Notes under the pieces: generated by a model
What the model saw: the letters and a program-made list of their open reading frames with translations, nothing else
Databases searched by the model: none
Told to the model about the DNA's origin: nothing
Made by a program: the position numbers and the translations under genes
Shown: piece by piece, positions 7,467-47,254 of the stretch
Position numbering within the stretch: the stretch's first letter is position 1
Layout of the letters: the number at the start of each line of letters is the position of its first letter
Assembly (NCBI GenBank): GCA_036172245.1
Contig: JAYWIR010000092.1
Span: forward strand, 124,001-188,000
Origin: Raillietiella orientalis
Taxonomy: Eukaryota
Direction: 5' to 3'
DNA: 64,000 bases

Positions 7467-10373
7467 TTTTCATCCGGTCACGTCGGGGCGTTTATTAAAA
7501 AACACTGTACATTTGCGGTACTAGGTCCCGCTAAGGCAAATATTTCATGAAACCTGCCAGGAAGCCGGTTCTGAAGCCAGCTTGTCCTCCTCGGCAGCGG
7601 AGGGGATAGAAGGTAAAACAAAAAGAAAAATAGATGAAATTACAGAAAGGAACTATTTGGAGGTCCGGGAAGGGATCACAGCCCGCTGGAGGAGGGGACC
7701 ATCCTCTCTAGGATGCCCTCGAGGTCCCTCGTCGTAGCTCCCAGATGGGACCAGCCGATCGCGATTCGCAGTTAGCGACCCGCGTGTACGATGGGGTTCC
7801 TGTCGCTGCTCCCTCTTTTGGCTGCGCTCCAGGCGGCCACAATCCATCTGAGGGAGAAGAGCGCTGCCGGGGTTTAGGCTGGTGGCAGGGCGTCTCGCAC
7901 GAAGAGGAGTCTCACAACGTCTCTTGGGGTACTGCCTACCGGCATAGGGAGGATCCCAGGATGACGTTCCCACAAGAGCCGGAGGGCAGCGCAGTCCACT
8001 AGCAGATTTATGAGGGATTCCTTCTCCCGCACACTGCACAGTTCTGTCTCACGTTCCCCAACTTCCAGTGGTGGTGGCGCATGTTGCAGGGAAGAACCGA
8101 GTGCAACAATAACAGCGCCGTTTTCTGCCACTTGAGAGGAAGGGTGGAGAAGTCTTTGAACAACGGGGGCCACTTTAGGTCATCCGCCGGGATGCCAAGC
8201 AGCTCGCTTTATCTCCGTATTCCATGCGAGTGAACGCTTGAGGATGCGGCATCTGCCAGTTGCCTCATTGTCCACCCGCTTAGATCCTTCTCCTTGCCCG
8301 CTATCCGGCAAGAGACTTGCCATCTCGGCTTCCGGTTGTTATGAAGCGCCCTTCGTAGGAAGGGCAGCGCCGTGGCCAGTGGGATCGTCTCTGCCCAAGT
8401 GCTTCTGGCGGGACACACGATCATGTTCCGCAGCGTGCAGTGGGTGTAGATGCCGGTGCGCAGGCGGTTGTCGGATTCTCCACTGATGTCTTTTAACTTT
8501 GCCCACGTTCCAACTGTTTCTTCCAGCCATGCGCTGGAGTTGTCGGGGCTGCAGGCCATGCACCCGTTCTCCTTTGCCAGGGTGGCCATGCGTCCCAGGA
8601 GAAGTCCGCATTTTCTTATTTTCCGGCAGGGGCACAGAAGAAAAGACGCGAGTTCTTCAGTCCCGGACACACGTCTTGCGAGAAGGCGGGCTGGAACGCA
8701 CCAACGGAAGTTCAACATTTTCGCTGAGATGGCTAGTGTGCGTCACCGCATCTGTGTTTTCATTCGCTCCATCGTCAGGACGCTAAGACCTCCGTCCCGA
8801 CGTGGTGCGCGCAAATCCTTTAAAGGCACATGAGGCCCCCCGCCGCCCCACAGGGCGATGCGTAGGAGGTCCTTTGTTCTTTTTTTCAGTTCACGGGGTA
8901 CGGGGAAAACAAACAGCAGAGGGCGAAGGAGAGGAACCGCGAACGCGTTCCACACCGCCGCCCGCTCCGGCAAGTGAAGCTTGCCTTCCAGAAACGGGCC
9001 GATCGCTGACTCCACTTTTTGGAGACGACCTGACCAGGCTTCTGACTGGCAGAAGTCCCCCAACGGAACGCCGAGGTACTTTAAGTACCTCTATGTGGGG
9101 ATCCTCAAGCGGATCCAGTCAAGCCGTCCGACTCACGTCGCACCAACCACTACCTCCGATGACTTCGCTTTATTTACCCGTAGTCCAGTCCCGCGGCTTA
9201 GCAGACAGAAGAAATCCTCGACTACGGCTGCCGGGGCGGACGTGGGCAAAAGGAGCAGAAGATCATCGGCGTAAGCCGCTACGGCCGGCGTACCTGGACA
9301 CGAGCTTCGGTGGGCAGCCAATGTCACCCTGTATGCTCTCAGCACCAGTTCGAAATAGGTGCTAAAGAGCAGGGGAGTCAGGCTGTCGCCCTGTCAAATG
9401 CCGGGCCTCACCTCTACGCCGAACACGTGCTGTCCTCTGAAAAACAAGTTGATGAACGCATTGCGCCAGCAGGCGCCCAGGTAGACCGTTAAGGTGTCCG
9501 GGAAGCCCATGCGATCCAGGAGCTCCAGAAGGAGTTCTCGGTCTACGCAATCGAACGCTTTGTGCAGATCGACTGCGATCGCTAGAGCCCCCTTCCCTTA
9601 CCGGTCGTCCCTTACTTGCTGCGCTGGCGCTTCCAAGTCAGTTTTGTCGACATTCCGTTTTTTCTCCAAATTTTTCTCGCGTTGCACATGGAACCATGTG
9701 CTGGCGAAGAACAGGTTCACTTCCATGCTTCGCCCGGGAAAAGCGTACGTCTGTTCCATGCTGAAAAAGCTGTCAGCTACCTGCCGCAGTCCCGCAGCCC
9801 ACAGTCCAGCCAGCAGCTTGGCGTCCGTGTTCACAATCGTGAACGGACGCTAGTTGCATCATTTTCTGAGGTCTTCTCCCTTAGGAAAGAGCCTCACCCA
9901 GGCTGACCGAAACGAGGCGGGAACATCGCCTTCGTTTCGGATCAGCCGTGTCAATTGGAGCACCAGGGTGGTCAGCTCTGCAACGAAGCTCTGAAAGAAC
10001 TCCGCCGGCAGGCCGTCCTCCCCTGGCGCGTGACGCCTCCTGAGCCTTTTAATAGCGGTGGTGATTACACCGGTCGTATAAGGCTCGTCGAGGCTTTCTT
10101 TCTCCTCCTCCCTTATGGCCGGGGCTCCATCTGGGAGCAAGCGCTGGAAGGCGTCCCACTCCGCAGGTACCCTGGCGCAAAGAGAGCAGTAAAATCCACG
10201 CACGAGGCGACGTATCGATGCTCGGTCTGAGTATTCCTTGTCCAGGTCGTCCAGCACGCTGGGCGGCCCGGATTGTCATCCTTGACGCTCGCCCCAACTT
10301 TGTACTCGGCCAAGCGACGAATGTCAGGGGTCCTTGAGAAACGACGGACGTGCAAATACGCCCTTTTGTAACG
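7467..10373 (-). mobile_element. Family B-like LINE, ORF2 linker to 3' end, degenerate
   Basis: APGEDGLPAEFF, AYADDLLLLL, ERAAVWNAF, PRRDGGL. Terminal AATAAA-hairpin at 7467-7496. Confidence 0.92.
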
Positions 10374-12410
10374 GGAGGACGTGTTTTTCCGTTGCTCCGT
10401 CAACAAGTACCGGGAAGCGGTTTCTTCTTGGAAAGTGTGTGTTTTTTCACATCGTAAGTGTCCGATGGCATCTCTGCCAGAGAACACCACGATGAAGGTA
10501 GGCGTGGGGAAGGCTAGTCATCCTTCACAGCCTACTGGATCAGTAGCATTCGCCCCGGAATCATCCCCGTCAACGCCGAGGACGTGGAGCGCCATGGTGG
10601 CCGCGCCGAGCGCGGAAATCTTGGAGGAGCAAGCGGCTTACAAGGCCTCAGGATATAAACCATCTCTGGTTTATAAAGTAGGACCCCTGTTCCATGGTCG
10701 CATTGCCCGGGTCTTCAGTAAGGCACTACAGGACTTTCCTGTAAGAGAAGAGGATCTTGACGGCCTCTCCGAACTCAGCGGGGGGCAGCGCGTGGAGGTC
10801 GTCTGCAAAGACGTAGCCTTAGCACAGCGAATGATAAAGACCCCGCTGAATATGGATGGCCGAAAAATCCTACCGGTTAGCATGGACCGCTCCGTAGTGG
10901 TCCATCTAACCGGAATCACAAATCAGATGACGCGCTTGGTGGTCAATTCCGAGTTGATGAAATACGGAGAGGTACACGCGTTGTGGCCAAAGCCCACCAT
11001 CTTCGAAGGTTTTCATGACCATTTTGGAGGCCAGGCTGCAGCGCGTTTCACTGTCAATGAGGGTGCTGGGTTGCCCCAGAAACTGAAGGTCGCGAAGGAA
11101 TCCGTCCACCTCTGGTACGTGGGGAAACCCCGCTATTGTGGCTACTGCAATGCAGTAGGGCACTTGCGCAAGCGGTGCCCGAACATTGAGTGCCACTTGT
11201 GCGGGTTTAAGGAACACGTTCGTCGTGTGTGCCCTAAACACCCCACACAAGTGCCAACTGCTGCCAGAAAGGCGCAGGCCAAAAAAATGAACAAGCTCGA
11301 AAGACCTAAGCGAGAAACTGTCCGACCCCAGCCGCCAACTGCTCTTCCTCACACCCAGGCGTCGGAGAATGAAACAGCGGAAGACGCGGGAGTGAAGGAG
11401 GGATGGCAACTGGTAGAGACCAGGAAGGAGAAACAAGTGGTGAAAGAACCACTGAAGTAAACGGAGAAAAAGAACACGGCAGGAAAGAATAATAAAGCCG
11501 CGCCGCTGTCAAAAATCTCCGCGAGTGCTCGGTAGCACTGGATCGCGTAAGCGTTCCTGAGGCTGCCACCCGGGACAACGAGCCCTCACTCACCGTTTCT
11601 GCCGCGTCCGAGGTTCGCGACCACGAACCCTCTGTTTACACAGAGGGTGAGCCGCGCGACGCGCTCGCCGACGGCGAGGACGCCGCCTACGCGAAGGCGT
11701 GGGAGGAGCTAGCGGTTACGCTGGCCGAGCGTGAGAACCCATCACGCAAGGCCGTGCGCAGGCCGGCTCCGCCGAAGAAGGCCCCCTTAGGTGAGTTCGA
11801 CCTGGGGGCCGTAAGTACATCCTCCTCTTCGGAGGCACCCCCTTTGAAGACGGGACGTAAGTCCCAAAAACCGAGGAGGCGCCTCCCGTCCCCGAGCGAG
11901 GAGGAGAAGCCGGAAGCCGACGACAGCGTGGGAAACCCGGAGGTAGAATTCCCACGCACGCAAGCCGTCGAGCAGGTCACCCCCTTGGAGGAGGGTAAAC
12001 AGGCTGGTGAAGTCCTCCCTGTAGTCGCCAAACCTGAACAGCTCGCCTCCATGGAGGAGGGCGAACAGAGAAACGCGACTCCACCGGAGGGCAAACCGGC
12101 CGATGCGCCGTTAACCATGGAGGAAGGGACCAGGTGCCTTTAGCACCTGACCCTCCCCTTCCACCTTGCGTCCCGCCCCAACAGGTGGCGGACGCCGCAG
12201 AGCCAATTTCCCAGGAATAACACCTGTGATCGCCTGTCGCCGTCGGATCCGCGTGGCCAGTTGGAACGTCAAGGGTCTGCGCGACGACGGCAACAGACGA
12301 GATAAGGCCGACACCCTCCGTGACTTGGACCTGGCTTTGCTGCAGGAGATCGACGTGATCACCGCGGCAGACGTCCAGGAGATCGAGACGATCGCGGAGG
12401 GTCGGCTGTT
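10374..12410 (+). mobile_element. Family B LINE 5' half (5' end, ORF1, start of EN)
   Basis: GGAGGACGTGTTTTT 5' motif; ORF1; RVASWNVKG...LALLQEI endonuclease start. Confidence 0.93.
10465..12221 (+). pseudogene. Family B ORF1 (nucleic-acid-binding protein, two CCHC knuckles), internal stops
   Basis: CGYCNAVGHLRKRC and CHLCGFKEHVRRVC; stops at 11460 and 12143. Confidence 0.9.
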
Positions 12411-15198
12411 TATAACCCGGGTGCACCAGGGCGTTTATTGTAAACTATCCGGGAACATGGTTCCTGGACAAAGGGGAAAACAAGAGACGAAGGGGGTGGG
12501 ATCCCGACACGCAGGTCGGTATGCCAAAAGTCCGGAACGGGAGGGAAGGGACCACAAATACACTACTATAAAAAAAAAAAAGAAAAATATGGAGGGCAGG
12601 GGACAGGGGTCTTTGGTGAGTCCGTTCCTTAATTTCAAAACAGGCGATGGGTTCCGGCGATCTCTTTCCTTACGCCCTGTGGCAGATGGGCCCACTCGGC
12701 AGCCGACGACATGTTTGTGCTGGCTAATCCCGTGGGCTGACGAAGGATGGCCAGCTTCTTCAACTCTCGGTGGAACTTGTCGATGGCGCGGGTGAAACAC
12801 ACGGCTGCAACGGCAGCACCCAAAGACAGCCCGCCTGCCGTGAAGAAGCGGCGCATCAAGTCCCTCGCGGTGTCCCCCTGATGCAGGAGAGCTGAGGCCA
12901 GCCTCCGCCAGACTCCTAGAAGGTCACTGCAGTCCAGGAGCAGGTGCGGGAGCGTTTCCACTTCCCCGCACCGCTCACAGTTTGGGGAGACAACTCCCCC
13001 GGAAGCAAGGTTCGTCCGCTGGTTGCAGTGAAAATCCCAATGCAGCAGCATGATGACGTACTGCTTCCACGAAAGGGGGAACATCGAAGTGTTTAAACAG
13101 GAGGGAGGGACCACAAGTTCTTCGGGGGGCACACTCAAGTGCTCGCTCCACCGAAGGAGTGCCTTCGAGATGAGGGGAGGCGTGGCGGCGTCTGCCAGCT
13201 TGCAAGTCCTCCAGCCGCCAATAAATCATGTTGTTCCTGCAATGGTGCAGGCGACCTCCTATCTCGCCGGTTCGCGGCGGTCATCTCTTGATCCGAGGGC
13301 AGACAGTGCGTCGGCGAACGGCGTGACGACCAGGCGGGTCCACTTCTCCTGGCTGTTGCACACCTCGTCCAACGTGCAATACGGGGACAGGTGAGCGCAA
13401 CGAAGCTCCAGGAGGAAAACATTCTGGTGCTTTGCCCAGCCATGCAACGGTTCCTGCGGTCAGGCTTGAAAGTTCGTTGGGCGGCAGGACATCCATTCCT
13501 AAGCTTTCAGGCGCCGGTACAGCGGTTTCAAGGGGAAACCGAAGCTTTTCGTAGCGCGCTCCGTGTGCGGCCGCAGCGACACAAGTCCATCACTGGCTGT
13601 GCAGCGCCGCAGAAGCAGGCGCGCGGAAGCGCACCACGGAGTGGACCAAAGGTTGGTGCACAGGGCCAACATCCGAAGCTGCACCTGCAGCTCGATTCTC
13701 TCCAGCGTCAGGATGCTTAAGAAAGCATCCCGACGCGGAGCCGTTAAGTCTTTGAGGCGTATCCTGGACCTCGCAGGTCTCCACAGAGCGTTCCTCAACA
13801 GGCTGTGTGCCTGGAGCTTGGCCGAGTAGGGAGACGGGCGAACAAAAAGCAGGGGGCGCAAAAGGGGGGCAACGAAGGTGTTCCATATCGTGGCCCGCTC
13901 AGGCAGGATGGACCTGCCATGGTGGAACGGGCTCAGAGCATTCGAAGCCTTTCGAAGGCAGTCCGACCACACTTCCACTGGGCTGATGTTCCCCAGCTGA
14001 ACGCCCAGATATTGCATGAAAGAAGCGGTCGGGATCTCCAGGCGGATCAAGTCGGACTGCCCCTACCACGCCGCATTAATAGGTACGACCACGCTCTTCC
14101 TCCGGTTTACGCTCATGCCCGCTACCCGGCAAATCAGCTCGAAGAAATCCTACAGACTGGACGCCGGGGTGGTCATGGGTAAGAGGAGAAGCAGGTCGTC
14201 AGCATAGGCCGCCACGGACGGCGCTCCTGTACATGAGCTTGGCAGGTTGGCCAGCGTAAGCCTGTACGCCCTCAGCACCAACTCAAAGAAGATGCTGAAG
14301 AGCAACGGGCTTAAGCTGTCGCCCTGTCTGATGCCCCGCCGCACCGGAACGCCGTACACATGGCACCCGCTAAAAGAGATGGAAATGAGCGCGTAGCGCC
14401 TGGAAGCTCGCAAATACGCCACGAGTTGCACCGGGATACCGAGACGTTCCAGGAGTTCCAGCAGGAGTTCCTGAATTACGCAATCAAACGCCTTGCGGAG
14501 ATCGACCGCGACCGCCAAGGCACCCGGCGCTTCCCCAGGCCGAATATAGCGACTCCAAGACTCGGTAGCCGCAGATGCGGTTGCCTGGCTGTCGTGCGTT
14601 ACGCAACGTTGCAGCTCGAGCCACGTGCGCGCGAAGAACAGGTTCGCCTTCATGGACCGCCCGGGAACAGCGTAAGACTTCTCCGGACTTACCACGGATT
14701 CAGCGATCCTGCCTAGGCGCGCGACTCAGAGGCTGCAGAACAACTTGACGTCCGCATTCACCAAGGTGATGGGACGCCAGTTGCTTAAATGGCGCATGTC
14801 TCCGCCTTTCGACAACAGACGCACCCTTGCTGAGCGAAACGAGGCCGTGACATTGCCCGTCTCACGCATCAGCGCAGAAAGCCTCAGCACCAGGGGTATG
14901 AGTTCCGCCGCGAAGCACTGGAAGAACTCCGCAGGCAGACTATCCTCACCTGGCGCCTTGCGCTTCCTGAGGCCCGCTATGGCGAAAGACACTTCTTCCG
15001 TCGTGAAGGGCAAGTCAAGTGTGGAGCGTTCCTTCTCGTCGATTGCAGGGGAATCCGCCGGCAGAAGCAGCTCAAAGAGACTGCGTTCCGTCGGCTCCCT
15101 AGCATACAACGAGGAGTAGTAGCGCTTTAGGAGACGGCGATCGTCGGCCGCGCCCGAGCACTCCAGGCCCTAGTTGTCGAGCAGACAACCAGGGCCTG
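12409..15198 (-). mobile_element. Family C-related LINE, ORF2 RT to 3' end, degenerate
   Basis: GIRQGDSLSP, AYADD, CERCGEVETLPHLLLDC. Terminal hairpin at 12409-12439. Confidence 0.92.
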
Positions 15199-15200
15199 GA

Positions 15201-17203
15201 GGCATCAGGCAGGGTGACAGCCTCAGCCCCCTGATCTTCAGCATCTACTTCGAGCTGGTGCTGAGGGCATACAGGGTGACACTGGCAACCCTGCCAAGCT
15301 CGTTTCCCGGCACGCCTGCCGTGTCGGCCTACGCCGACGCCCTTCTCATCTTGCTCCCCAGGTCCACCCCGGCGTCGGCGTTTGAAGATTTCTTTGAGTT
15401 GCAGCGCCGCGGAACGGGCCTCGAGGTGAACATAGAGAAATCCACAATAGTTCCTAGATCTTCACTGCTTTATGAAAATACGGCGTAAGCAGGACGGCCG
15501 GACTGGATTCGCTTGGGGACCCCCACGGGCAGGTGCTTCAAGTACCTTGGCGTTCCGTTGGGGGACTTCTGCGTTCCAGAAGCCTGGTCCATCCATCTTC
15601 AAAAGGTGAAGTTGGCGATCGGCCCGTTCCGGAACGGCAAGTTTTACTAGCAGGAGCGGGCCGCGGTGTGGAATGCGTTCGCGGCCACCCTCCTTCGCCC
15701 CTTACTTTTTGTTTTCCCCGCCCCTCCCATCATACAGAGACGGACCAAAGCCCTCTTGAGGACTGCCCTTCGGGGCACAGCGAGGTCGCGAGTCCTATTG
15801 AAAGACTTGTGCGCTCCACGCAGGAATGGTGGCTCGGGCCTCCTTACTTAGGAGCGCATCCAACTACAAACAACACTTCGAAAGTTAGCCCTTGCGGCTA
15901 TCTTATGGATGACGTCAAGGTGCGATCCGGCACGGCTCCTCGCCAGAAGAGCGACCAGCTGCGAAGGATTGTCCTCGATCCTCGTGGCCTACCAGCGCAG
16001 CCTCTCCAACTGTGGCCCCGATTTGCGCCAGATGGTCGCCCTGATGAGGGAGAATACCTGGATCTCCTGCCTCCCCGTGAACTGCACTGCCTGGCTTCAG
16101 GAGTCAGCTTCCGCGTGGGCTAAGATCAACGGCACGAGCAAGGCGGAATACAACTGCCAACGACGAGGACCGTACGCTCGACAGCCGCTGAAGGAGATTA
16201 TCAACACGCCCCGGAAGTTTCTGTGGGCTTCTTTCAGCCCCCTTGCCCCCGTTTTGTCCTCCCTAAAAAACACCTGGAGCAGCAACGAGCGGGCATCGTG
16301 GGAAGTGTTCTGCCTCATCCGAGGCAGGAAAAAACCTTTAAAGGCGTGGACGACTCGGGAGATCACGGACGCTGCCACCCCGAGCGTCCCGCCTCACGGA
16401 CTTGCGCGCTGGGGAGTGCTGCTCGCGATACCTCCGGAGAAGGTGAAGTGGCCCCCAGCGTGTTGGGATTTCGGCACACTTCCGTTGAAGTGGCAGGAGA
16501 CGGTGTTGCTATTTCTGCACTGGAGACTGTTAAGCAGAGCACGCCTGTCTCACTGGACACTGAGGAATGTGTATGCCCGCTGTGTCGAGTGCGGTGAAAG
16601 AGAAACCTCCATGCATCTCACCCTCGAGTGTGTCGCCCTGGATGGACTCTGGAGTCGTATCGCCCCAATCCTCCATCTTCCAGTAGGCGACGCTAAGGAA
16701 ATTTACCATCGCCTCTTTCTGCGTGACGGCCTGCGCCCCGCTGCGTCTCTAGCAGTCCTCTGCTGCGTGCGCGGCATTGTGCAAAGGTGGCACGCCAGAA
16801 GAAGAGGCCCAAGATGCAGGGACGCTTTCCACTGGACGACGATCTCTTTAGAGACTGCGACAAGGTGGAATCTACTTCCAACAGTAAAAGCTGAACTTGA
16901 CTGCATCCTAAACAGGATGCGGAGGACCGACCCAGGCGCCCAGTGATCCCTTCCGTGCCCCCCCTCCACCGCCCCATATAACTGTTTCCCTCCCGTTATT
17001 TCTCTTTTTGTTTGTTTTTTGTTCTACTTTTCCCTTCCCATGCGCCTCGGGAATGGACCTAAGCGGACTATGCACCGGCAACAGACACGTCACCCAAGGT
17101 GGGAAAACCAAGTTTTTTCCACAACCAACTTTTGAAAGACTTTATTATCTGATTTTTGTAATAAATTAGAATAATAAATGCCCCGGCATATCCGGGTGAC
17201 AAA
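15201..17203 (+). mobile_element. Family G LINE, 5'-truncated within RT, complete 3' end
   Basis: Starts at GIRQGDSLSP; YADA; CVECGERETSMHLTLEC; stop at 16946; AATAAA at 17173 + hairpin. Confidence 0.92.
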
Positions 17204-17300: not shown

Positions 17301-18611
17301 GTGCAACAACAACAGCGCCGTTTCCTGCCATTTGAGGGGGAGGGTGGAAAAGTCTTTGAACAACAGGGGCCATTTTAGGTCATCCGCCGGGATGCCAAGC
17401 AGCTCGCTTCATCTCCGTTTTCCATGCGGTTGAACGCTTGGGGATGCGGCGTCTGCCAGTTGCCTCATTGTCCACCCGCTTAGATCCTTCTCCTTGCCCG
17501 CTATCCGGCAAGAGACTTGCCATCTCGGCTTCCGGTTGTTATGAAGCGCCCTTCGTAGGAAGGGCAGAGCCGTAGCCAGTGGGGTCGTCTCTGCCCAAGT
17601 GCTTCTGGAGGGACACACGATCATGTTGCGCAGCGTGCAGTGGGTGTAGATGCCGGTGCGCAGGCGGTATCCGGATTCTCCACTGATGTCTTTTAACTTT
17701 GCCCACGTTCCAACTGTTTTTTTCAGCCATGCGCTGGAATTGGCAGGGCTGCAGGTCATCCACGCGTTCTCCTTTGCCAGGGTGGCCATGCGTCCTAGGA
17801 GAAGTCCGCATATTTTTTGTTTCCGGCCGGGGCATAGAAGAAAAGACGCGAGTCCTTTAGTCCCGGACATACGTCTGGCGAGAAGGCGGGCCGGTACGCA
17901 CCACTGGGTGTTCCGCATTTTCGCTGCGATGGCTAGAGTACGCCACCGCAGCTGTGTTTCCATTCGCTCCATCGTCAGTACGCTGAGACCTCCGTCCCGA
18001 CGCGAGGAAGTGTAAGCCCTGAGTGTGCCAGGTGTGGGGAGCGGGAATCGCTCCTCCACCTTCTAGTTGACTGTGCTGCCATCCGTCCCCTGTGGGAACG
18101 GTTCGGGACGACCCTCGGGCTCCCAATGGACAGCGCGCCCAGAGTCGTTCTTCGGCCATTCTTCGTGCGTGACGCCCTGCAGCCCGTCGCAGCCCTCGCA
18201 GCCCTCTGCTGCATCCGGGGCATCGTGTCGGCCTGGAGCGACATTTGCGACGAAGGAGTGGATGCCAACGAGAGGGTAGTCATTCCGTATGCTGCGAGCT
18301 TCATGCGAAGAGTTGCAAGATGGCCCCATCTGGGACAAACGCCGAAGGACCTAGAGGGCATCCTGCGAAGGATGAGCCCTCCTCCTAGTGAATAGTGATA
18401 CCTTTCCCTCCCTCAAAACTTCTTTTGTTCTCCTTTATTTTATTTTTTTTGTGTTTTGTTTTCTCCCAAACTCCCCTCCACTGCCGAGGAGCGTCACGCC
18501 GGGCTGCGTCCCGGCGTCCAAGCAGGTCCGGTGTTGTGCGGCCGTTAGTGGGGCCTCGTACCACGTTTTTGTAGAGTTTCAATGAACGCCCCAGGTGTAC
18601 CCGGGTGGCAA
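17301..18611 (+). mobile_element. Family B LINE, 5'-truncated with 5' inversion (17301-~18002 inverted)
   Basis: The minus-strand piece RRDGG...LLLLH lies just upstream, in the intact element, of the plus-strand piece TRGSV...PPPSE*. Terminal hairpin at 18581-18611. Confidence 0.88.
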
Positions 18612-18705
18612 CACCAAATTCCCGGGGCAGGCGGTGCACAGGGAACTCTTCGCAGAACTCGTGGACCGAGGCCTTCATGCGGTCCCAGTCTTGGAGATTC
18701 CGGAG
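18612..18705 (-). mobile_element. Host ORF2 remnant ending at 'REFG-V'
   Basis: DWDRMKASVHEFCEEFPVHRLPREFG. Confidence 0.85.
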
Positions 18706-36310: not shown

Positions 36311-37032
36311 CGCATTTTGCGGGATTTCTACTCCTTCCTATACGCCAGGAGAACACCAGAGCACTCTAGTGCGCAGCGGCTCCTGACGGAGGGTGCTCCC
36401 GCGTTAAGGGAGGGGGAGGTTCACACCATCCACCAGAAATTCACGATGGCGGAGATTGTTTCCGCCATTACAAAATTAAAAAAAAGAAGGCGCCAGGGAA
36501 AGACGGGCTGCTAGCTCAATTCTACCAACTGCTTGAGGCAGAGTTGGGCCACCTGGTGCTCAAATTATGCATGCTGATCCGTGGACGTGGGGAAGTCCCC
36601 AACTCGTTCCGGTCAGCAAAAGTACGCCTCCTCCATAAAAGAGGAGACTTGCGCAAAGTTGGCAACTGGCGTCCCATCACTGTAGTGAATGCGGACACAA
36701 ATTTGCTCGTCAAACTCTGGGTTGAGCGGTTGGGACGGGTAGCGGAACCCGTGGTCTGTCCGGAATGGACATACGCTGTTCCCGGACGAATCATGGAAGC
36801 CAATCTGTTTCTCGCCAGCACCTTTTGGCAGTTGCAACAACGCGGTGCTTAACTACGTCGAGAGGGTCCTGGACTCTCCAGTGACCGGGAGGTAGGAAGC
36901 CGAGAAGAAGATGCGGCGCCCGGAGCCCTTGCGGTCACAGTCGATTTGCGTAAACTTTCGACTGCGTCGACCAGCATCTTTTCGTTGAACTCCTAATACG
37001 CCTGAGACTTCCGGCCGTCTTCCTGGCCTATC
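36311..37032 (+). mobile_element. ORF2 RT fragment of a related LINE
   Basis: FRSAKVRLL, NWRPITVVNAD, YAVPGR. Confidence 0.88.
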
Positions 37033-37225
37033 GCAAGCGTTCCAGGAGCTCCAGGAATAGCTCCTGGTCGACGCAATCAAAAGCTTAACAGTTGAAAATG
37101 TCAACAGCGTGGGAGCGAACCGGCGGAAGCGTTCGTCATTGAGACCGTGATCGATGACACCGCCTTCGAGCGTGCGGCGGAGAAGCTGGCTGCATCGTTA
37201 AAGCCAGACCCCTACAAAGCCAGTT
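37033..37225. mobile_element. Minus-strand RT scrap (KAFDCVDQELFLELLERL, 37033-37086) joined to a plus-strand family D ORF1 scrap (37087-37225)
   Basis: The second part aligns with 48520-48655 (IDD.AF.RAAE.LAASL.P). Confidence 0.8.
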
Positions 37226-40200
37226 GGAGGACGTGTTTTTCCTCCACTCGCCAAAGAGTAGTAGGAAAGCGCTTTTTCTTGTGTGTGGTGTTTTGTGTAC
37301 ATCGTCGCTGTCCAATGGCCAGGATGCCAGAGGACACCGCGATGGAGGTAGGCGTGGGGAAGGCTAGTTCGCCCCCACAGCCTACTGGAGCAGGTATAGC
37401 CGTCCCGGAATCATCCCCGGCCACTCCGAGGACATGCAGCGCCATGTTGGCCGCGCCCAGCGCGGAAGCCATGGCGGAGATGGCCGCATACAAGGCCTCC
37501 GGGTACAAGCCAACGCTTGTCTACCAGGTAGGCAACTTGTTTGAAGGCAGGACTGCACGCGCAGTTAGCAGGGTGCTGCAGGAAGCGAATATACTAGAGA
37601 AGGAATTTGACGGCCTCTCCGTCCTCAGCGGAGGGCAGCGGGTCGAGGTGGTGTGTAAGGACGTCACCTTGGCTCACCGCCTGATTCATGCGCCGCTGAA
37701 CGTTGACGGCCGCAAGATCTTGCCAGTGTCAATAAAGCGCTCCGTAGTGGTCCACATGACCGGCATTAGCAGCCGCATGACTCCCTCTGCGTTAGGAGAA
37801 GAACTACGAAAGTTTGGGGAGGTGCACGCACTGTGACCCCAACCCACCATTTTTGACGGCTACGGAAGTCTTTTTGGTGGTGAGGCTGCAGCGCGGGTCA
37901 CCGTAAAAGAAAATTCTGGACTTCCACACAAACTGAACGTCCCGCAAGAAAGCGTGGACCCTTTGTACGTGGGGAAACCACGATACTGCGGATACTGTTC
38001 TACCGTGGGACACCTCCGTAAGAGGTGTCCTAACATCCAGTGCCACCTGTGGGGGGAGAAGGGCCACGTTCGGCGCCTGTGCCCCAAGCGCCCCACTCGG
38101 GTTCCACCTGCCGCCAAAAGAGCGCAAAGGAAACGTGCCTTGAAGGTCGCAAGACCTAAGGCGGAAAGTATCCGTCAGAAGCTGCCAACACCTCAACTTC
38201 CGGCGCAAAGGCCGGAGGATAAACCTTCCAAAGTAATGGAAGGGAAAGAGGGCTGGCAACTTGTTGCTGCCAGAAAAGCCAAGAAAGCCCCATCCACGGA
38301 GAAGAAAGAACGTAAGCCGGCGGGTAAGCGAAAAAACCTGGTCCGCGCTCGAAAACTCGCGAGTGCACGGTGGCACTGGAACGAATCGTGGTTCCCGAGG
38401 ATGCCACCCGGAGCGACGATTCTACCCTTGCCGCTTCCTCTACGCCCAATGCTCGCGACGGCGAACCCTCTGTTTACACATAGGGTGAGCCGCGCGACAT
38501 AGCGGCGGTCGAAGCCGCGGACGCCGCGTTCGCGTATGCGGCGGAGGAGCTCGCGGTCACGCTAGCCGAGCGTGAGAACCCCTCGCGCAAGGCCGTGCGA
38601 AGGCCGGCTCCAACGAAGAAGGCCCCACAGGAGAGTTAGACCTGGGGGCCGGAAGTACATCCTCCTCCTCGGACGCACCCCCCAGGAAGTCGGGACGCAA
38701 GTCCCAGAAGCCCAGGAGGCGCCTCCCCTCCACCAGCGAGGAGAAGACGGAAGCCGTCGCCAGCGTGGGAAATTCGGAGGAGGAATTCCCACGCTCGGAA
38801 GCTGTCGATCCGGCCACCCCCATGAAGGAAGGTGAACAGGGGGGTGAAGTCCCCCCTGTAGGCGCCGACCCTGAACAGCCCGCCCCCATGGAGGAGGGCG
38901 AACAGGTAGGCGCGACCCCACCTGTGGGTGACCCGCTCGATGTGCCGTTACCTATGGAGGAGGGGGACCAGGTGCCTTCAGCACCAGACCCTCCTTCTCC
39001 ACCTAGCGTCCCGCCCCAACAGGTGGCGGACGCCGCAGGTCCGATTTCCCAGAAGTAACACCTGGGGTCGCCAGTCGCCGTCGGATTCGCGCGGCCTGTT
39101 GGAACGTCAACGGGATGCGCGACGACGGTAACAGGCGAGATACACCCGACACCTTGCGGGAGTTCGACCTGGCCCTGTTGCAGGAGATCCATGTGATCAT
39201 TGCGGCGGACGTCCTGGAGATCGAGACGATCGCGGAGGGTCGACTGTATTGGCGATGCGGCGCCCGCAACACTTGTGGGGTCGCGTTCTTCGTGAAGCCG
39301 GTCATCGACGCTGCCGTGAAGGGCGTACGCTTCGATGACGACGGTCGGGTCGGTCAGCTGACTCTCAGCTGGTCCGACTCGATCGAATTGATCGTCACGA
39401 ACGTGTACGCCCCAAGCGTAAAAGGGGGATACAGGGACCGTACCAGGTTGCTGGAAACCCTGAAGCGCGACTGGCTGGCCGATACGAACGTGCGGAAGGC
39501 ACACCTGATAGCTGGGAACTTTAATCTCCGTCTGCTGTCAGGTGAGCCCGAAGCACAAGAACGCACGCCCAACGAGTTGTGCGCTGCCATGCGCACGCGC
39601 AACTTGTTGGCAAACGCGGAGGGAATGGACCGCAGCATCGACCACTTCTTCCTGGATGTCGACCTGTGCTCGCGGGTCGGCAAACGGGGAAAAGTTGCGT
39701 CGACTCTGTCAGACCATTCCAGGTTAATCGCCGAGGTTTGCCCGCACGATAAAGGACGCCCGTCGAGGGCGTGGCGGCTGACTGGGGACTCGACGCGGTT
39801 CTCAGGTGCGAAGGAACACCTTCGCGAATTCTTGAGAGCGTCACCCTCCGCAGTCTCAAAGATTGGGACCTGTTCAAGGCCTCGGTCCGCGAGTTCTGCG
39901 AGGAGTTCCCCCTGCACCGCCAGCCCCTTGGACTTGGGGAGGAGGCTCGGAAACATAGGGCCTATTTACAGGCCCGCCGGTACGAGAGGACCCCTAATGT
40001 CCGTCGCCTGGGCGAATATCGAGCCGGGGCCGAGCGCCAAGCTTGACAATCCGGGTCGGCCAGCTTGCTGGACTGTGAGCTTCTCGTCTAGGACAGGTGG
40101 AAGACTCCATAATTAGAACGGAGCAGACATCCACTGTTCCCGGGCGAAGTATGGATGCCAACCTGTTCTTCGCGAGCATATGGTTCCATGTGCAGCGCTG

Positions 40201-42421
40201 CCAAAATGAAACTGGCGGAAAGATTGGCAACCCCACTTTGGGGCCGCCAGCTGGGCTGGGAATGGACACCCGGGCTGGGAAGGGGGCCCTAGCGATCGCG
40301 GTCGATCTCCATAAGGCGTTCGACTGCGTTGACCAGGAGCTACTGTTGGAGCTCCTGGGTCGCATGGGCTTCCCATCCTCCCTTCTCTCCTTCCTGCGCT
40401 CCTGCTGGCGCAACGCCATCGTTAACATCTGCTTTTCCAGCCAACAGGTGTACGGCGTGCCGGTGCGGCGGTGCATACGGCAGGGCGATAGCCTCAGTCC
40501 CCTGGTCTTTAGCACCTACTTTGAGTTGGTGCTGAGAGCGTACAGGGTGACTTTGGCCCCATTGCCGAGCTCGTGCCCCGGCACGCCCGCCGTTGCAGCG
40601 TACGCCGTCGATCTTCTGCTCTTGTTGCCCATGTCCGCCCCGGCAGCCGCAGTCGAGGATTTCTTCGACCTGCTAAGTCGTGGGACTGGACTTCGGGTAA
40701 ACAAGGCGGAGTCGTCGGTCGTAGCGGTGGGTGCGACGTGGGTCGGACGGCCTGACTGGATCCGCTTAAAGATCCCCGCGGCCAGGTACCTGAAGTACCT
40801 GGGTGTCCCGTTGGGGGACTTCTGCCTCGCAGAAGCCTGGTCAGGTCGTCTCCAAAAGGTAGAGTTGGCAATCGGCTCGTTTCTGGAAGGCAAGTTCCTT
40901 CTGCCGGTACGGGCCGCGGTGTGGAACGCGTTGGCGGCTTGCATCCTCCGCCCCCTGCTTTTTGTTTGCCCCGTCCCCCGTGACATTAAAACGTGGACCA
41001 AGGACCTACTCCGCATCGCCCTCTGGGGTAGCGGGAGGCCACGTGTGCCTCTAGATGACTTATGCGCTCCTCGTCGGGACGGCGGTCTCGGCCTCCTGAC
41101 GCTGGAGCGCCTGGACATACAGCTGCGATGGCGCACCCTCGCCATCGCAGCAAAGTCATGGAGCACCCCTTGGTGCGTTCCGGCCCGCATCCTCGCCCGC
41201 CGTGTGTCCAGGACGCAAGGACTCGCGTCGTACCTTCTGTGCTCTGGCAGGAAGGTCAGAAGATGCGGCCTTCTCCTTGGGCGCATGGAAGCCCTGGTGA
41301 GAGACAACGGCTGGATGGTATGCAGCCCCGCCAACTCCTCCGCCTGGCTGGAGGAATCCGTTGCGACGTGGGCCAAGCTGAACCTCCAGACTTCCCCGGA
41401 CTGGAACCGCCTGCAATTCGGCCCCAACGCCTGCTGCACACTGCGGACTACTCTGGAGTGTCCCGAAAGGAGCACGTGGGTGGAGACTACCCCTCTAGCC
41501 TCGACCCTGCTCTTCCTACGAAGAACTTTAACCAGTGGCCGCAAGCCAAAGTGGCAAGTCTCCTGTCGAATCGCAGGCAAGGAAAAGAAGATGAGCGGTT
41601 GGACCATGCAAGAACTGGCAGATGCCACGACCCCGAGTGCCCTCCCGCGTGGACTTCGTCGCTGGGGTGAGCTGCTCGGCATCCCGACGGATGACCTGAA
41701 GTGGCCTACAATATTAATCGGATCCAGGCTTCTCCCCCTGAAGTGTCAGGAGTCGGCGCTGCTGCTGTTGCACTGGAGTCTACCCTGCAACGCGCGCCGC
41801 TTCCACTGGACGCGAGGAAGTGTAAGGCCTGAGTGTGCCAGGTGCGGGGAGCGGGAATTGCTCCCCCACTTACTTGTTGACTGTGCTGCCCTCCGACCCC
41901 TGTGGGAACGGTTCGGGACGACCCTCGGGCTCCCAATGGGCAGCGCGCCCAGAGTCGTTCTTCGGCCCCTCTTCGTGCGGGACTCCCTGCAGCCCACCGC
42001 AGCCCTCGCATCTTTCTCCTGCATCCGAAGCATCGTGGCGGCCTGGAGCGACATTCGTGACGAAGGAGTGGATGCCAACGCGAGGTATGTCATCCCGTAT
42101 GCGGTCTGCTTCATGCAGAGAGCTGCGAGATGGCCCCATCTGGGAAGCATGAAGATGGACCTGGAGGGCATCCTGCGAAGGATGGGCCCTCCTCCCAGTG
42201 GATTGTGATTTCTTCCTCTCCCTCCAAACTCATTTTTTGTTTTCCTTATCTTTATCTTTCTTTTTGTTTTGATCCTTATCCCCCTCCACTGCCGAGAAGC
42301 GTCACGCCGGGCTGCGTCCCGGCGTCCCGGCAGGTCCGGTGCTGTGTGGCCGTTGGGGGGGCTCGTACCACGTTTATACAGAGTTTTTTTGATAAACGCC
42401 TCGGGCGTACCCGGGTGACAA
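37226..42421 (+). mobile_element. Family B LINE with both termini and an internal ORF2 deletion at ~40075-40097
   Basis: 5' motif at 37226-37240; ORF1 37315-39058 (broken); EN 39060-40075; RT to C-terminus 40097-42208; terminal hairpin 42391-42421. No matching TSD seen, so it may be a recombinant. Confidence 0.92.
40097..42208 (+). pseudogene. Family B ORF2 C-terminal 703 codons (RT with YAVD; CARC...HLLVDC)
   Basis: Open frame, but the N-terminal RT is deleted and the catalytic YADD is altered. Confidence 0.9.
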
Positions 42422-45048
42422 CCCCAAATCCCGCAGGTAGGCGATGCTAAAGGAACCGGTCGCAGAACTGCTGGACCGACTGCTTGAAGCGGTCCCAGTC
42501 CTGAATCGTCCGCATCCTGAAGTTCCGTATGAACGCGCGGAGATGTTCCGCCGCGTCCGGGAACTTCAGTCAGTCCCCTGGCAGACGCCACGCTGACGAC
42601 GGGGGGCCCTTGTCGCGCGGATGCACTTCGAACACGAATCGGCCATGGTCCGACAGCAAGGACGGTAACTTGCCGCGCCTGCCCACGCGAGAGCATAGGT
42701 GCTAGTCAAGGTACACGTGATCGATGCTCCGTTCCATGTCCGTATCTCCGGCCAGCAAGTTGCACGTGTGCATTTGCGCGCACAACTCGTTGACGCGGTG
42801 GTTCAGTGTATCCGGCGCACCTGAAAGCAGGCGCAGGTTGAAGTCACCTGCGATCAGGTGCGCTTTGCGTACACCTGCTTCGATCAGCCAATCGCGTCCG
42901 AGGGCAAGGTAGAATTCTCTTCTTGCCTTCGCCCTCAAAGCGTTATTTCCGCTAGGAGCGTATAGGTTGGTGACGACCAGGTCGATAGAGTCGGACCAGC
43001 TGAGAGTCAGCTGACCGACGCGACCTGCGTCATCGAACCGAACGTCCTTTATTGCGGTCTCGATGGCTGGCCGAAGCAGGAAGGCGACACCGCTTGATAT
43101 CGCGGTGCCGCAACGCCACAACAGCCGCCCACCCGAGATCCGTTCGATCTCCCGGGCTTGATCTGCGGAGATCACGTGGATCTCCTGCAGCAGCACCAGG
43201 TCGAAGGATGCCAGGGTGGCGGTCACGTCACGCCACTTGCCGTCGTCGCTTAGCCCGTTCACGTTCCAACAGGCGATCAGAAGATGACGGCGAGAGGCGA
43301 TTCCCGGCATTATGGCTGGGAAAGTGGCGTCGCGGCACCTGCCGCGGGGCAGGTGTAGGAAAGGTCCATCGGTGCGAGGACCATCGTAACGAGGACGGAG
43401 GCCTCTTCAGGCGCCTGGGGTACCTGTTCGGCCTCCATCCTCACCATCCCCTCCGTGTCCGAGCGTGGAATTCTCTCGGGCGACGGGTCCCGGGAGTTTC
43501 CCACGCTCATGGCACCCTCGCTACCGGAAGCCATCTCTTCCCCTTCGTCGGGGGAGACGATCTTCCGGGGCATTGTGGAATTTCGTCCTGCCTTTTTGCG
43601 GGGTGCTGAGGACATGGATGCTGTGTTTCCGTCCTTCACCTCGGGGTCGGAAGTGGCCGACCCCTGAGGGGAAGCAGGACGCCTGACGGCCTTCTTGCCA
43701 GCCTTGGGAACGGCCGGCTGCAACGAGGCAACCAGTTCCTCCGCGGCGCGCTCCAAGGCGACGTCATCGAGCGTTGGCTCGATGACGGATGCCGCCGCCT
43801 CGTTTCCTTCCTTGTTGACTTTGCCAACGGAGGGTTGAGCAGGGGCAGCAGCAAGTTATTTAGCGCCGCATTCGTCGATGGCGGGAATACCCTCTACGAC
43901 GACGCACCAGCTTTTGGTTTTTTCGCGGCGCGGAGTGGTTTCGCTCCGTTTCGCCACGTTCTTTCCCTTCTTATGGGAGTTTTTCTTGGGTTCGACCTTC
44001 TGCCACCCTGGCTCTTGACCCTCGCTTTCGAACTTTTCGGCGTTTTTCGCCGGAGTCTCGGGGCTGGCCTTCGCCTTTGTGGCGCAGGTGACCTTCTAAG
44101 CAGCAGCACGAGTTGGCATCTTTTTTCTTTTTTTAGCCGCGCTCTTCCTTGCGTTTTTTGCGGACACGACGCGGTCTGTGTTTTGGGGGCACACCAGACG
44201 GGTGTGCCCCGCTTGTTTGCATTGCTGGCACTGCACGCTCGGACACGTCATTTTATGGTGACCAAAGCTGCTGCAGCAGCCGCAGAACTTGGGTGTCCCC
44301 ACGTACCCGACGTCAGTGGACTCACCGTTGACGGTGAGTTTGTGGCGAAACTCACACGCTTCGCGGACCGTTACTCGCGCTGCACCCAGGTTGCCAAGCA
44401 CCCCGTCGTAATCAACAAAAAACGTAGGCTCACCCCACAGCGCGCGGACAGTTGCGAATTTTTCTAATTCGTTCCGCACAGCCTCCTTCGTCATCCGGAA
44501 CGTGATACCGGTCAGGTGAATTATCACCGACCGGTCTTCAGTAATTGGGAGAAGCCTCCGGCTCCCCATAATTACAAGGGTCCGCAGAAGTCTTTGCACA
44601 AGAGTTGCCTCCTTGCAGATAACTTCCACAAATTGTCCCCCGCTTCTGACGGACATAGCCAGAAGCTCCTCTTTTTGTACGCCGAGAACGCGCATCGCCT
44701 GAAAGAAGGCGCGCGCGTTTTCGGGAGAATATAGACCGTCTACCTTATATAGAAGGGGTGGGTTATACCTCTCCTCCAGGTAAGCGCGCATCTTTGCCAT
44801 AGCCGCTGGCGTAGGTGCCGCAGCCACGGGGTTCCAAGCCCTGGGTAAGGCCGAGGGCGCATCCGTGTTGGCGGGAGCCTCCACTGATGCGGAAGCCCCC
44901 ACCTCCATCTCCTCCGGGGGCAATGAGGTCATCGCCCCTGGATCCTCACCGATTGTGGTATCAGGCATTGCTGCCTAATCCACCACCCACACCACGCACA
45001 AGCACCAACGGAAATAAAACTCAGGAGCAGCAAAAAGACACGTCCGCT
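42422..45048 (-). mobile_element. Family D-related LINE 5' half (ORF1 44968-43310, ORF2 EN from 43310)
   Basis: GGACGTGTCTTTTT 5' motif; CGCCSSFGHHKMTC and CQQCKQAGHTRLVC; ACWNVNG, LLQEIH, AGDFN, IDH. Cut at GFG-V. Confidence 0.92.
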
Positions 45049-45147
45049 CGACGCTCCCGAGTCTCTCGGATTGAAGCCTTTTTAAGGCCTTGGTCCGGGA
45101 GTTCTGCAAGCAGTTCCCCTTGAACCGCCTGCCTTCCGGATTCGGCG
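45049..45147 (+). mobile_element. Host ORF2 remnant ending at 'SGFG-V'
   Basis: VREFCKQFPLNRLPSGFG. Confidence 0.85.
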
Positions 45148-47254
45148 TTATAACCCGGATACGCACGGGGCGTTCATTTGTGAACTCTACATGCCTGGTA
45201 CGAGGCCCCATTACGGCCGTAAACACAGGACCTGTCGGGACACCGGGACGCAGCCCGGCGTGGCACTCCCCGTCAACGAAGGGGGATGGGGATAAGACAA
45301 TAAGAAAAATAAAAAAAGAAACAAACAAAAAGAAGTTGGAGGGCAGGGAAGGGATTACTGGTCACTGTGGGAAGGGCCCATCCGTCGAACAAAGCCCTCG
45401 AGGTCTGTCTTCATATTCCCTAGTTCGAGTCATCCGGCAGCTTTCCGTAAAAAGCGTTGGGCATACGGGATGACATCACTCGCCTGTGGATCCACTCCTT
45501 CGTAGTTGACGTCGCTCCATGCCGCCAGGATGCCACGGACGCAGCACAAGGCTGCGATGGCTGCGGCTGACTGCAGTGCGTCCTTCACGAAGAAGGGCCG
45601 AAGAACGTCTCTGGGGGTGCTGCCCGTAGGGAGCCCGAGGGTCGTGCCGAACAGTTCTTAAAGAGGTCGGAGGGCAGCACAATCCACAATAAGGTGGGGA
45701 AGCGACTCCCACTCCCCGCAACTGGCACACGCAGGATCCACAGCTCCCCTCGTCCAGTGAAAGCGGCGCGCGTTGCAGGGTAGACCGCAGTGCAATAGGA
45801 GCAGCGCCGACTCTTGCTACTTGAGGGGCAGGATCCTGGATTCTTTTATCACCAGGGGCCACTTCAGCTCATCCCTGAGGATGGCGAGCAGCTCGCCCCA
45901 CCTCACTAATTTACGCGGCTGGACGCTCGGAGTCATGGCGTTGGCCAGTTCTCCTGTTCTCCAGCCGCTAATCAACTTCTCGCGTCTCTCGATGCAGCAG
46001 GAGACTTGCCACCTTAGCGTCCGGCTGCTGTGAAGTGCCCTCCTCAGGAAAAGCATCGCTGTAGCTAGGCAGGTTGTCTCTGCCTACGTGCATCTTGCTG
46101 AACTCTCCAGGAGATTCCGCAGCGTGCAGCGGGCGTAGGGGCTGCATCGAAGACGATTCCACGTTTCGTGGCTACTCTGGTTTACCACTGCCCACGTTCC
46201 AATATTCTCCTCCAGCCAGGCAGGGGAGTTGGCGGGGCAGCAAACCATGCAGCTGTTCTCCTTGGCCAATGTTGCCTTGCGCCCGAGCAGTACGCCGCAT
46301 CTTCGAATCTTTCGGCCACGGCTCAGAAGAAAAGAAGCAAGTCCTTCGCACCGGGAAACACGGCTGGCCAATAGGCGGGCCGGAGTGCACCAAGGGGAGC
46401 TCCACATCTTCGCTGCGATGGCAAGGGTTCGCCATCGCAGCTGGATTTCCACGCTCTCCAGCGTCAGGATGCTGAGACCGCCGTCTCGACGCGAAGCGCA
46501 CAAGTCATTCAAAAAGACTCGGGGCCTCCCCTTGCCTCAAAGGGCTATGCGGAGGAGGTCCTTTGTCTTCTTCTTTGATTCCACGGTGGGAGAGCAAACA
46601 AAAAGCAAGGGGAGGAGGATGGGCGGCCGCGAAGGCGTTTCGAACCGCGGCCCGTTCGGGCAACTGAAACTTGTCTTCCAGAAACGGGCCGATCGCCGTC
46701 TCGACTTTTTGAAGGCAGCTGGACCACACTTACGCAGGGGAGTAGTCCCCCAACGGCACACCAAGGTACTTGAAGCACCCCGTCGTGAGGATCCCCAGAC
46801 GGACCCAGTCCTGGTGCCATGCTTACGCCGCACCTATTGGCACCACCGACGACATAGCCCTGTTCACCTGCAGTCCGGTCCCGCGGCTGAGCAGATCGAA
46901 GAATTCTCCGATTGCCTTTTCCGGGGTGGACATTGGCAACAAGAGCAGAAGATCGACGGCGTACGCTGCAACGGCGGGCGTGCTGGGGTACGAGCTCGGC
47001 AATGGGGCCAAAGTCACCCTGTACGCTCTCAGCACGAACTCAAAGTAGGTGCTAAAGAGCAAAGGGCTAAGGCTATCTCCCTGCCTTATGTCCCGTCGCA
47101 CCGGCACGCCATGCAACTTGTTACCGCTGAAAGTGACGGTATTCCTCACATTCCGCCAGCAAGAGCGCAGGTGGGAAATCAAGGAGGGTGGGAAGCCCAT
47201 CCGACACAGGAGCTCCAAGAGTAGTTCCTGGTCTACACAGTCGAACGCCTTGTG
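45148..47254 (-). mobile_element. B-related LINE, RT ('HKAFD') to 3' end; flanks the D element on its 5' side
   Basis: IRQGDSLSP, AYAVD; B-type 3'UTR; terminal hairpin at 45148-45178. Confidence 0.9.

Follow-up and report, generated by a model that had tools for sequence, protein, structure and literature searches.

An L1-type retrotransposon family that appears to target a fixed antisense site in the ORF2 of related LINEs in a Raillietiella orientalis retrotransposon nest

Results

A family of L1-like elements in a LINE nest

We analyzed a 64,000-nt stretch of Raillietiella orientalis DNA (assembly GCA_036172245.1, contig JAYWIR010000092.1, positions 124,001 to 188,000 of the forward strand), hereafter the window, with a focus on one group of long interspersed elements (LINEs), family B, whose copies recur at one point in the second open reading frame (ORF2) of other LINEs. 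All coordinates below are those of the window. The GC content is 52–62% throughout, except for a region of 43% at about 22–30 kb. Long stop-free frames on both strands encode apurinic/apyrimidinic endonuclease (APE; Exo_endo_phos) and reverse transcriptase (RT; RVT_1) domains, and a self-comparison of the window yields many pieces that are 65–92% identical, in either orientation. Judging from these features, the window is a eukaryotic nest of degenerate L1-like retrotransposons of the non-LTR (long terminal repeat) type with APE and RT. The elements and host segments discussed below are collected in Table 1.

A tolerant motif search of the window recovered nine related 3' ends. All read ...GGTGAnAA, with 2–4 A's after ...CCGGGTGAn and without a poly(A) tail. 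Upstream, they carry an AATAAA-like sequence followed by CGCCCCGG-loop-CCGGGTG and the 2–4 A's (pattern AAACGCCCCGG-loop-CCGGGTGAnAA). For this region, RNAalifold gave a possible stem of only 4 bp in the nine ends, with each pair present in 8/9 when G-U is counted, and without compensatory change. Such uniform termini indicate that the 3' end is defined, as it is in 'stringent' LINEs. When the terminal 600 nt of all nine ends were placed in a maximum-likelihood tree, the four B 3' ends grouped in one clade (UFboot/SH-aLRT support 81/94), with terminal branches of 0.09–0.22 versus 0.41–0.72 for the rest. These four copies have in common the 3' untranslated region (UTR) and the end AAACGCyCnnGnnTnyCCnGGTGrnAA (18611 (+), 42421 (+), 45148 (-) and 34606 (-)), and the 5' end GGnGGACGTGTyTTT is common to three B copies (10374 (+), 34595 (-) and 37226 (+)). 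The full-length copy, Bref, begins with GGAGGACGTGTTTTTCC, and its 3' UTR terminates in AAACGCCTCGGGCGTACCCGGGTGACAA. Three B copies (Bd, B3 and the Bb 3' part) are 5'-truncated, as is the sister element Y.

Table 1. Elements, host segments and uninterrupted sites in the window (^, nick position)
Feature	Positions	Strand	Content
Bref, full-length family-B L1-like LINE	37226..42421	+	ORF1, APE, RT, 3' UTR; ORFs frameshifted
B3, family-B copy	45148..47255	-	3' end 45148; 5'-truncated
Bd, 5'-truncated family-B copy	34606..36310	-	3' end 34606
Bc, family-B copy	32390..34595	-	full 5' end 34595; 3' part lost
Bb 3' part, last 609 nt of family-B copy	18003..18611	+	85% identical to Bref; 3' end 18611
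Bb 5' part, full 5' end	10374..12409	+	cut at ORF2 residue ~75 by D-like 3' end (12410)
Host H1, stub of ~94 nt	18612..18705	-	...LQDWDRMKASVHEFCEEFPVHRLPREFG; ends TTTGGTG^
Host H2, C/E-like LINE	42422..45047	-	own 5' end, ORF1, APE to ...HRLPAGFG; cut TTTGGGG^ by Bref 3' end
Host H3, stub of about 100 nt	45048..45147	+	ORF2 residues ~288-321, ...FPLNRLPSGFG; ends TTCGGCG^ at B3 3' end
Host H4, upstream part	30623..32160	+	ORF1 30623-31538; APE 31566-32160, to ~30 nt before GFG site
Host H4, 10 nt (TTCGGAGTGA) between Bd 3' end and Bc 5' end	34596..34605	+	
Host H4, downstream part	36320..37039	+	RT residues ~383-620; collinear, same orientation as upstream part
Host B' (B-related, 72% to Bref)	7467..10372	-	~9-12 nt past own GFG site to own 3' end 7467
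Uninterrupted site, element C	61495..61512	+	LPTGFG, then I
Uninterrupted site, element D	52233..52250	-	LPRGFG, then E
Uninterrupted site, D-like copy Dl2	7046..7063	-	LPRGFG, then E
Element X (C-like, 88% to C over 300 nt)	5448..6215	+	3' end antisense to Dl2 KAFD
Element D, full length	49189..60769	-	antisense in E-C at ORF2 residue ~66, carrying nested A
Element Y, 5'-truncated	15189..17203	+	antisense in D-like element at ORF2 residue ~377 (GCCGACG^)

Family B 3' ends join one point of the ORF2 linker

All four family-B 3' ends adjoin the reverse complement of a LINE ORF2 at its ...LPxGFG codons, and all are antisense to the host ORF. The tail GGGTGGCAA ends at 18611 and antisense host sequence CACCAAAT starts at 18612; GGGTGACAA ends at 42421 and is followed by host CCCCAAAT from 42422; and GGGTTATAA, on the minus strand, ends at 45148, with the host ending at 45147. 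The fourth tail, TGGTGGAAA, ends at 34606 and is followed by 10 nt of host (34596–34605, sense TTCGGAGTGA) and then by the next B 5' end at 34595. Read on the host sense strand, with a slash at the junction, the joins are GAATTTGGTG/TTGCCACC, GGATTTGGGG/TTGTCACC, GGATTCGGCG/TTATAACC and TTCGGAGTGA/TTTCCACC. When the joins were aligned with MAFFT alongside four uninterrupted copies, the first three shared one column (TTYGGNG^) and the fourth lay 3 nt later. An earlier first-pass annotation had described just this arrangement, and its junction positions hold to within 1 nt; the host peptides it listed (VHRLPREFG, *HRLPAGFG and LNRLPSGFG) were likewise recovered. The GFG site lies ~70 residues past the SDH motif of the endonuclease and ~165 residues ahead of the RT domain, and is therefore in the APE–RT linker.

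Simple arithmetic gives P ~ 3e-10 for three further random insertions into a 5.2-kb element all landing on the strand hit by the first and no more than ±3 nt away from it. The GFG site is used by 4/4 B-clade 3' ends versus 0/5 of the other related ends (Fisher P = 0.008), and none of the four B 3' ends lies at the KAFD, residue-377 or residue-66 sites used by its relatives (see below). The hotspot proposed in the first-pass annotation is supported as a base-precise, orientation-fixed site in different host copies; its suggestion about the bases recognized there is not (see below).

The 5' junctions point to the same place. Measured from the GFG point, two of the three full-length B 5' ends, and 6/7 B junctions overall, fall between -10 and +12 nt. 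At the 5' junction of Bb (10374), the downstream half of the host is the B-related element B', which resumes ~9–12 nt downstream of the site; the earlier estimate for this junction (10373) of within about 3 codons is in keeping with this. Host H4 stops at ~32160, about 30 nt short of the site, also as described before, and resumes at about 36320, beyond Bd, with ~180 nt of host missing. The 10 nt of H4 left between Bd and Bc may be read as the target-site duplication (TSD) of a tandem B–B insertion, in which the second B entered a regenerated site. The duplication around Bc measures 7–10 nt. On the 3' side of Bc lies a 210-nt D-like RT fragment (32161–32370).

Two neighboring segments are less regular. 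The Bref 5' end adjoins a 130-nt sense fragment of an E-like ORF1 (37087–37225; 70% to E residues 499–535). Next to the 5'-truncated Bb 3' part, and inverted against it, is a 706-nt fragment (17297–18002, -) that is 92% identical to part of host B' (8097–8802, -). The arrangement resembles a twin-priming inversion, but we rejected this origin: the fragment is 92% like B' and only 71% like Bref, and the adjoining direct part is 85% like Bref, so that the two parts belong to different subfamilies.

The hosts differ

If the recurrent join reflected one old junction, the host flanks should be about as similar to each other as the B tails attached to them. The H1 and H2 flanks are identical at 67/94 positions, compared to 85.4% for their B tails (binomial P = 0.0003), and H2 and H3 at 59/93, compared to 74.8% (P = 0.01). 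For H1 and H3, the values are 64/93 and 73.9% (P = 0.16). The closest match to the H2 flank is element C (79/94), and the closest to the H1 flank is B's own internal site (73/91). H2 extends 2.6 kb from the junction to its own 5' end motif, GGACGTGTCTTT, at 45034–45045. Together, the diverged flanks and long hosts exclude a single inherited junction in the case of H2 and H4, and a common origin is conceivable for no more than H1 and H3. By this count, the sequences attest to at least four integration events: one in H2, two in H4, and one or more in H1 and/or H3.

The two stubs are of near-equal length and start within about 15 nt of each other, at about ORF2 residue 288–290. A long (~100-nt) duplication, a shared truncation point and a flank carried with B are all candidate explanations. 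Beyond 18706, H1 gives way to an A-like LINE from which ~95 residues are missing.

The apparent valine codon is a product of the junction

Uninterrupted copies of the site were previously noted to read GFGI, GFGE or GLGE, and we find the same (61495–61512; 52233–52250 and 7046–7063; and 39930–39941, the last being Bref's own site). As occupied sites read GFGV, it had been suggested that GT forms part of the recognized site. Our analysis argues against this, in that the T's after the nick are the complement of the terminal AA of B. Two sister elements have TSDs that reveal the unfilled host sequence. For Y, the host reads GCCGACG^ATC and the filled junction GCCGACG/TTTGTCACC; for D, the host reads AAGAGAT^CGA and the filled junction AAGAGAT/TTCTCACC. 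The T's after the nick therefore derive from the terminal A's of the element. By the same logic, hosts H1–H3 end at TTYGGNG, and the apparent Val codon consists of a G from the host and TT from the element. The host at 34606 is the only one that may have a native GTG. Intact GFGE copies read TTCGGAG^AG, identical to occupied H4 up to the nick. Four of the eight GFG-type sites in the window are occupied, and among these eight we saw no sequence rule that separates occupied from empty sites. Since the 'V' is made at the junction, the proposed comparison of occupancy between GTN and GAG sites loses its basis.

Sister families use other sites in the same gene

The five non-B 3' ends also lie inside LINE ORF2s, four of them antisense and only the B' 3' end (7467) in sense, such that 8/9 related 3' ends are antisense within another LINE's ORF2. 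Across the tree of the nine 3' ends, insertion site tracks lineage.

Three junctions of the C/E family (one 3' and two 5') lie at the RT motif KAFD (residue 593; host sense AAGGCGTTCGA^). At the 3' end of element X, the host sense strand reads CACAAGGCGTTCGA^ (6216–6229, -). The full 5' end of element E-C (47263) interrupts B3 at the RT KAFD motif of B3 (47241–47251); the adjoining B3 sequence (47241–47262, -) resumes with GCACAAGGCGTTCGA and then CTG, as expected of a TSD from the same KAFD nick. The third, an E-like 5' junction (fragment at 37091), adjoins a 47-nt fragment (37040–37086, -) that starts with AAGCTTTTGATTGCG and encodes KAFDC, so that here, too, the duplicated bases are those expected.

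Element D is flanked by a perfect 12-nt TSD, AGCGCAAGAGAT (49177–49188 and 60777–60788), within its host E-C (47263–49188 plus 60777–64000). A D-like copy, whose 3' end is at 12410, is joined to a different host at a point 25 nt downstream of D's site; the two D junctions together span residues 66–75. Y has a TSD of 47 nt, 42/47 identical (17204–17250 and 15142–15188), which is unusually long for an L1-type element. Element X (5448), the resumed D-like host (15188) and the database protein P0001 (residue 1 = LLDD...) all start at ORF2 residue ~359–363, which is the expected start of a ~45-nt duplication from the residue-377 site. The nick contexts are TTYGGNG^ for B, GCCGACG^ for Y, AAGAGAT^ for D and GCGTTCGA^ for C/E.

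Other features of the window and database matches

Pfam Exo_endo_phos and RVT_1 exceed their curated cut-offs in B (39007–40116 and 40079–42208), D and A. In C, RVT_1 is above the cut-off and Exo_endo_phos below it (20.2 bits versus 24.5). The closest solved endonuclease structure to the APE domain is human L1-EN (E = 5e-6). For the CCHC knuckle and the C-terminal zinc-binding domain that characterize ORF1 of plant-type L1, all matches fell below curated cut-offs: zf-CCHC at E = 0.14–0.21 and zf-RVT at E = 0.0054. In the Y ORF, zf-RVT scored 25.9 bits, the cut-off being 27.5. The protein database contains one close relative, P0001 (71% identical), with other matches at 22–28%, and no shorter fragments were found there. 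Named ORF2 matches are fern, grass and aphid proteins at 24–28% identity. With ORF2 of C as the query, a search of genome contigs gave a single RT at 22% identity in a contig of a metagenome-assembled genome, and a search of viral contigs gave no match. A metagenome scan with an overly degenerate 3' motif returned at least 120 stretches, none homologous to the window among the matches listed (blastn, tblastn).

Part of the nest can be read as the series H3-host > B3 > E-C > D > A. A 5.4-kb repeat, 89% identical (2–5447 versus 55205–60649), is a composite of element A (+) and a D-type ORF1 (-), with D-type ORF1 matches at 5481->4702 and 60764->59856. Hence either the nested pair was duplicated or A struck the same place in two D-type elements. 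We had considered 5447 and 60649 as ends of 'A' elements and rejected this, as the repeat is the composite of A and the opposite-strand D-type ORF1. The sole non-LINE sequence in the window is the 8 kb at ~22000–30300 (43% GC), which has neither long frames nor LINE similarity.

Discussion

Site-specific insertion and its alternatives

The reading we favor, at a probability of roughly 70%, is that family B is a sequence-specific L1-type non-LTR retrotransposon whose target is a conserved ORF2 stretch of LINEs of its own superfamily. The B machinery would nick the host sense strand right after TTYGGNG, i.e. one base beyond the end of the second Gly codon in LPxGFG. We place the nick on this strand because on it the 3' end of the host runs directly into the complement of the element tail. 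The freed 3'-OH would then prime reverse transcription, which would start at the defined 3' terminus of the B RNA (...CCGGGTGrCAA, without poly(A)), and priming from a sense-strand nick would explain why B is always antisense to the host. A variable second-strand break would leave either a short duplication (7–10 nt, as in the tandem pair) or target deletions ranging from small to ~180 nt. Duplication may recreate the site and thereby allow head-to-tail B–B arrays. Sister families would act alike at other fixed antisense ORF2 positions, and together they would build nests. The superfamily has the anatomy of target-primed reverse transcription (TPRT): tails joined to an internal target base, TSDs of 7–47 nt, 5' truncations, and an ORF2 with APE and RT. 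As the determinant of the site we favor the element's own endonuclease or another of its proteins, as in R1 and Tx1L; the APE domain of B itself presumably makes the nick and, rather than RNA pairing, sets the specificity.

Several observations weigh against this view. The evidence base is one 64-kb window, and the copies are old (15–28% diverged, frameshifted), such that neither activity nor enzyme specificity can be read from them. No B copy has a clean matching pair of flanks with a TSD: Bc has lost its 3' part, the host of Bd lacks ~180 nt, and the flanks of Bref (5' side) and the interior of Bb fit no simple insertion history. The 5' flank of Bref is the E-like ORF1 fragment rather than the remainder of its 3' host, H2, which could be due to rearrangement, a template jump or misassembly. 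One of the four 3' junctions is 3 nt off. The identity between H1 and H3 cannot be told apart from the identity of their B tails, and the similarity of these two stubs could mean that the flank traveled with B. D and the D-like copy join 25 nt apart, which is predicted by neither an endonuclease nor an RNA-guided model. Finally, the four families have nick contexts in which no shared motif was seen, a somewhat awkward finding if their endonucleases are closely related.

This last point bears on a rival explanation in which targeting is guided by RNA. Transcription of a B copy in a GFG site would run slightly beyond its 3' end, and the read-through tail, consisting of antisense ORF2, would pair with the nicked sense strand of any other LINE copy and thereby fix the start of reverse transcription at the boundary between B and host. 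Such behavior has been described for R2 and R1 templates with downstream 28S sequence. Each new copy would inherit its site from the place where its parent lies, and a rare stray ORF2 insertion would found a new family-specific site. Such guiding would account for the way in which site follows lineage, with each related family having its own site even though the nick contexts share no motif, and for the fact that all targets are multicopy sequences of the same superfamily, 8/9 3' ends being antisense in another LINE's ORF2. It would also fit that, without read-through, the B 3' end showed no complementarity to the target when the junction sequences were inspected by eye. However, no co-converted tract was seen. 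Beside its junction, H2 is closer to element C (87% over 78 nt) than to the other B flanks, the mismatches between H1 and H2 are, by eye, evenly spread over the first 30 nt of the flanks, and the 25-nt offset between the D and D-like joins is again unpredicted. We regard RNA guidance as unlikely, though it is the most serious of the alternatives.

Far less probable is that the B/GFG junction arose just once and that segmental duplication, or 3' transduction carrying some 100 nt of flank, then spread it. The near-equal stubs H1 (~94 nt) and H3 (~100 nt), which both end in unrelated sequence, would be expected in that case, as would an H1–H3 identity (64/93) compatible with that of the B tails (P = 0.16), and a duplicated composite is indeed present in the window (2–5447 versus 55205–60649, 89%). 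But H2 and H4, which belong to different families, are long and keep ORF1, APE and RT in collinear order, and the H1–H2 and H2–H3 flanks are more diverged than the B tails (P = 0.0003 and 0.01). The tandem Bc–Bd pair, with 10 nt of host in between, needs two events in one host, and the far ends of the stubs have neither an A-rich tail nor a poly(A) signal. Even if correct, this scenario removes at most one of four or more events. We give almost no credence to a generally fragile or favored spot, or to an assembly artifact, either of which would make the position uninformative about B. The unmatched flanks (the 5' side of Bref and the interior of Bb) could reflect rearrangement or chimeric assembly of repeats. 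Yet the GFG site is used by 0/5 non-B ends, and the KAFD, residue-377 and residue-66 sites by 0/4 B ends; the junction sequences differ among copies, so they do not represent one collapsed repeat; and an assembler would not join tails to an internal site at one base in diverged copies. Template switching between RNAs was rejected as well, as it predicts sense–sense chimeras, whereas the element tails here are joined to internal sites in antisense and with TSDs.

The site-specific reading can be extended to the sister families, more tentatively. At least four related L1-type families may divide the ORF2 of their own superfamily into base-precise antisense sites (~66–75, GFG 321, ~377 and KAFD 593), with each insertion killing a relative, offering fresh targets and building Zepp-like nests. 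Perhaps the site is inherited through a read-through flank that guides priming, a form of RNA-templated 'homing'. We consider this combined picture possible but doubtful.

Relation to known systems

Site-specific LINEs are known for ribosomal DNA (rDNA), telomeres, small RNA genes and one DNA transposon. The last case is closest to ours in target habit. Tx1L and Tx2L of Xenopus laevis have an endonuclease of the AP type. They resemble family B in having a fixed target inside another transposable element and insert into the Tx1D and Tx2D DNA transposons (PMC6719617, Cosby et al. 2019, citing Christensen et al. 2000). In the excerpts available, that review illustrates LINEs directed at other elements by Tx1L, whose target is Tx1D (PMC6719617). 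Unlike Tx1L, B enters the coding sequence of LINEs from within its own superfamily, B-related copies among them, and always does so antisense. Moreover, several sister families here each have a different site in the same gene. This comparison concerns target habit, not phylogeny.

R1/R2-type elements offer a second parallel, in that each of several related families has come to use a site of its own within a shared target unit. As far as excerpts of the relevant papers go, R1, R2 and other elements specific to rDNA, telomeres or small nuclear RNA genes share with family B the use of one phosphodiester bond, a conserved multicopy target, a fixed orientation and TPRT (PMC5035012, PMC1919474, PMC7265360). 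Site specificity in this sense, i.e. independent copies at the same target nucleotide and in the same orientation, is seen for B in three of the four 3' ends at the same base and one at +3 nt, all antisense. Unlike in R1/R2, the target is a retrotransposon gene rather than a host gene, each insertion destroys a competitor or relative, and the endonuclease best matches human L1-EN among solved structures.

The nest as a whole recalls that formed by Zepp, although Zepp has a poly(A) tail whereas the elements here end in 2–4 A's. Zepp and ZeppL are L1 LINEs of green algae that form centromeric clusters in Chlorella, Coccomyxa and Chlamydomonas (PMC8226300, 2021, citing Higashiyama et al. 1997). 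Like such clusters, as portrayed in the excerpts available, the window is a dense nest of LINEs within LINEs with 5' truncations, a likeness of pattern; nested insertion into existing copies, as in the Zepp type, applies to 8/9 3' ends in the window, which lie antisense inside another LINE's ORF2. In those same excerpts, Zepp is not described as having a base-precise site, a fixed antisense orientation or sites divided among families, and an extract of the v6 genome paper states that the exact repeat structure 'warrants further study'. A full-text literature search, which did not cover supplements and does not prove absence, yielded no account of a LINE that inserts at a fixed antisense position of a LINE ORF2. 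On the best reading of the sequences, family B is closest to Tx1L and to Zepp-type nesting, and what appears to be new is a sequence-specific LINE with a LINE ORF2 as its target.

In the parts of the literature consulted, Zepp-type nesting is known as a pattern, with neither site nor mechanism given. Fixed ORF2 sites would explain how LINEs pile into nests. If true, our reading would provide a concrete mechanism for the growth of LINE nests, and possibly of LINE-built centromeres, and a clear case of transposon-on-transposon parasitism. It would also provide a natural series of closely related endonuclease/RT modules with different targets, well suited to learning how APE-type LINEs encode target choice, or whether that choice is guided by RNA.

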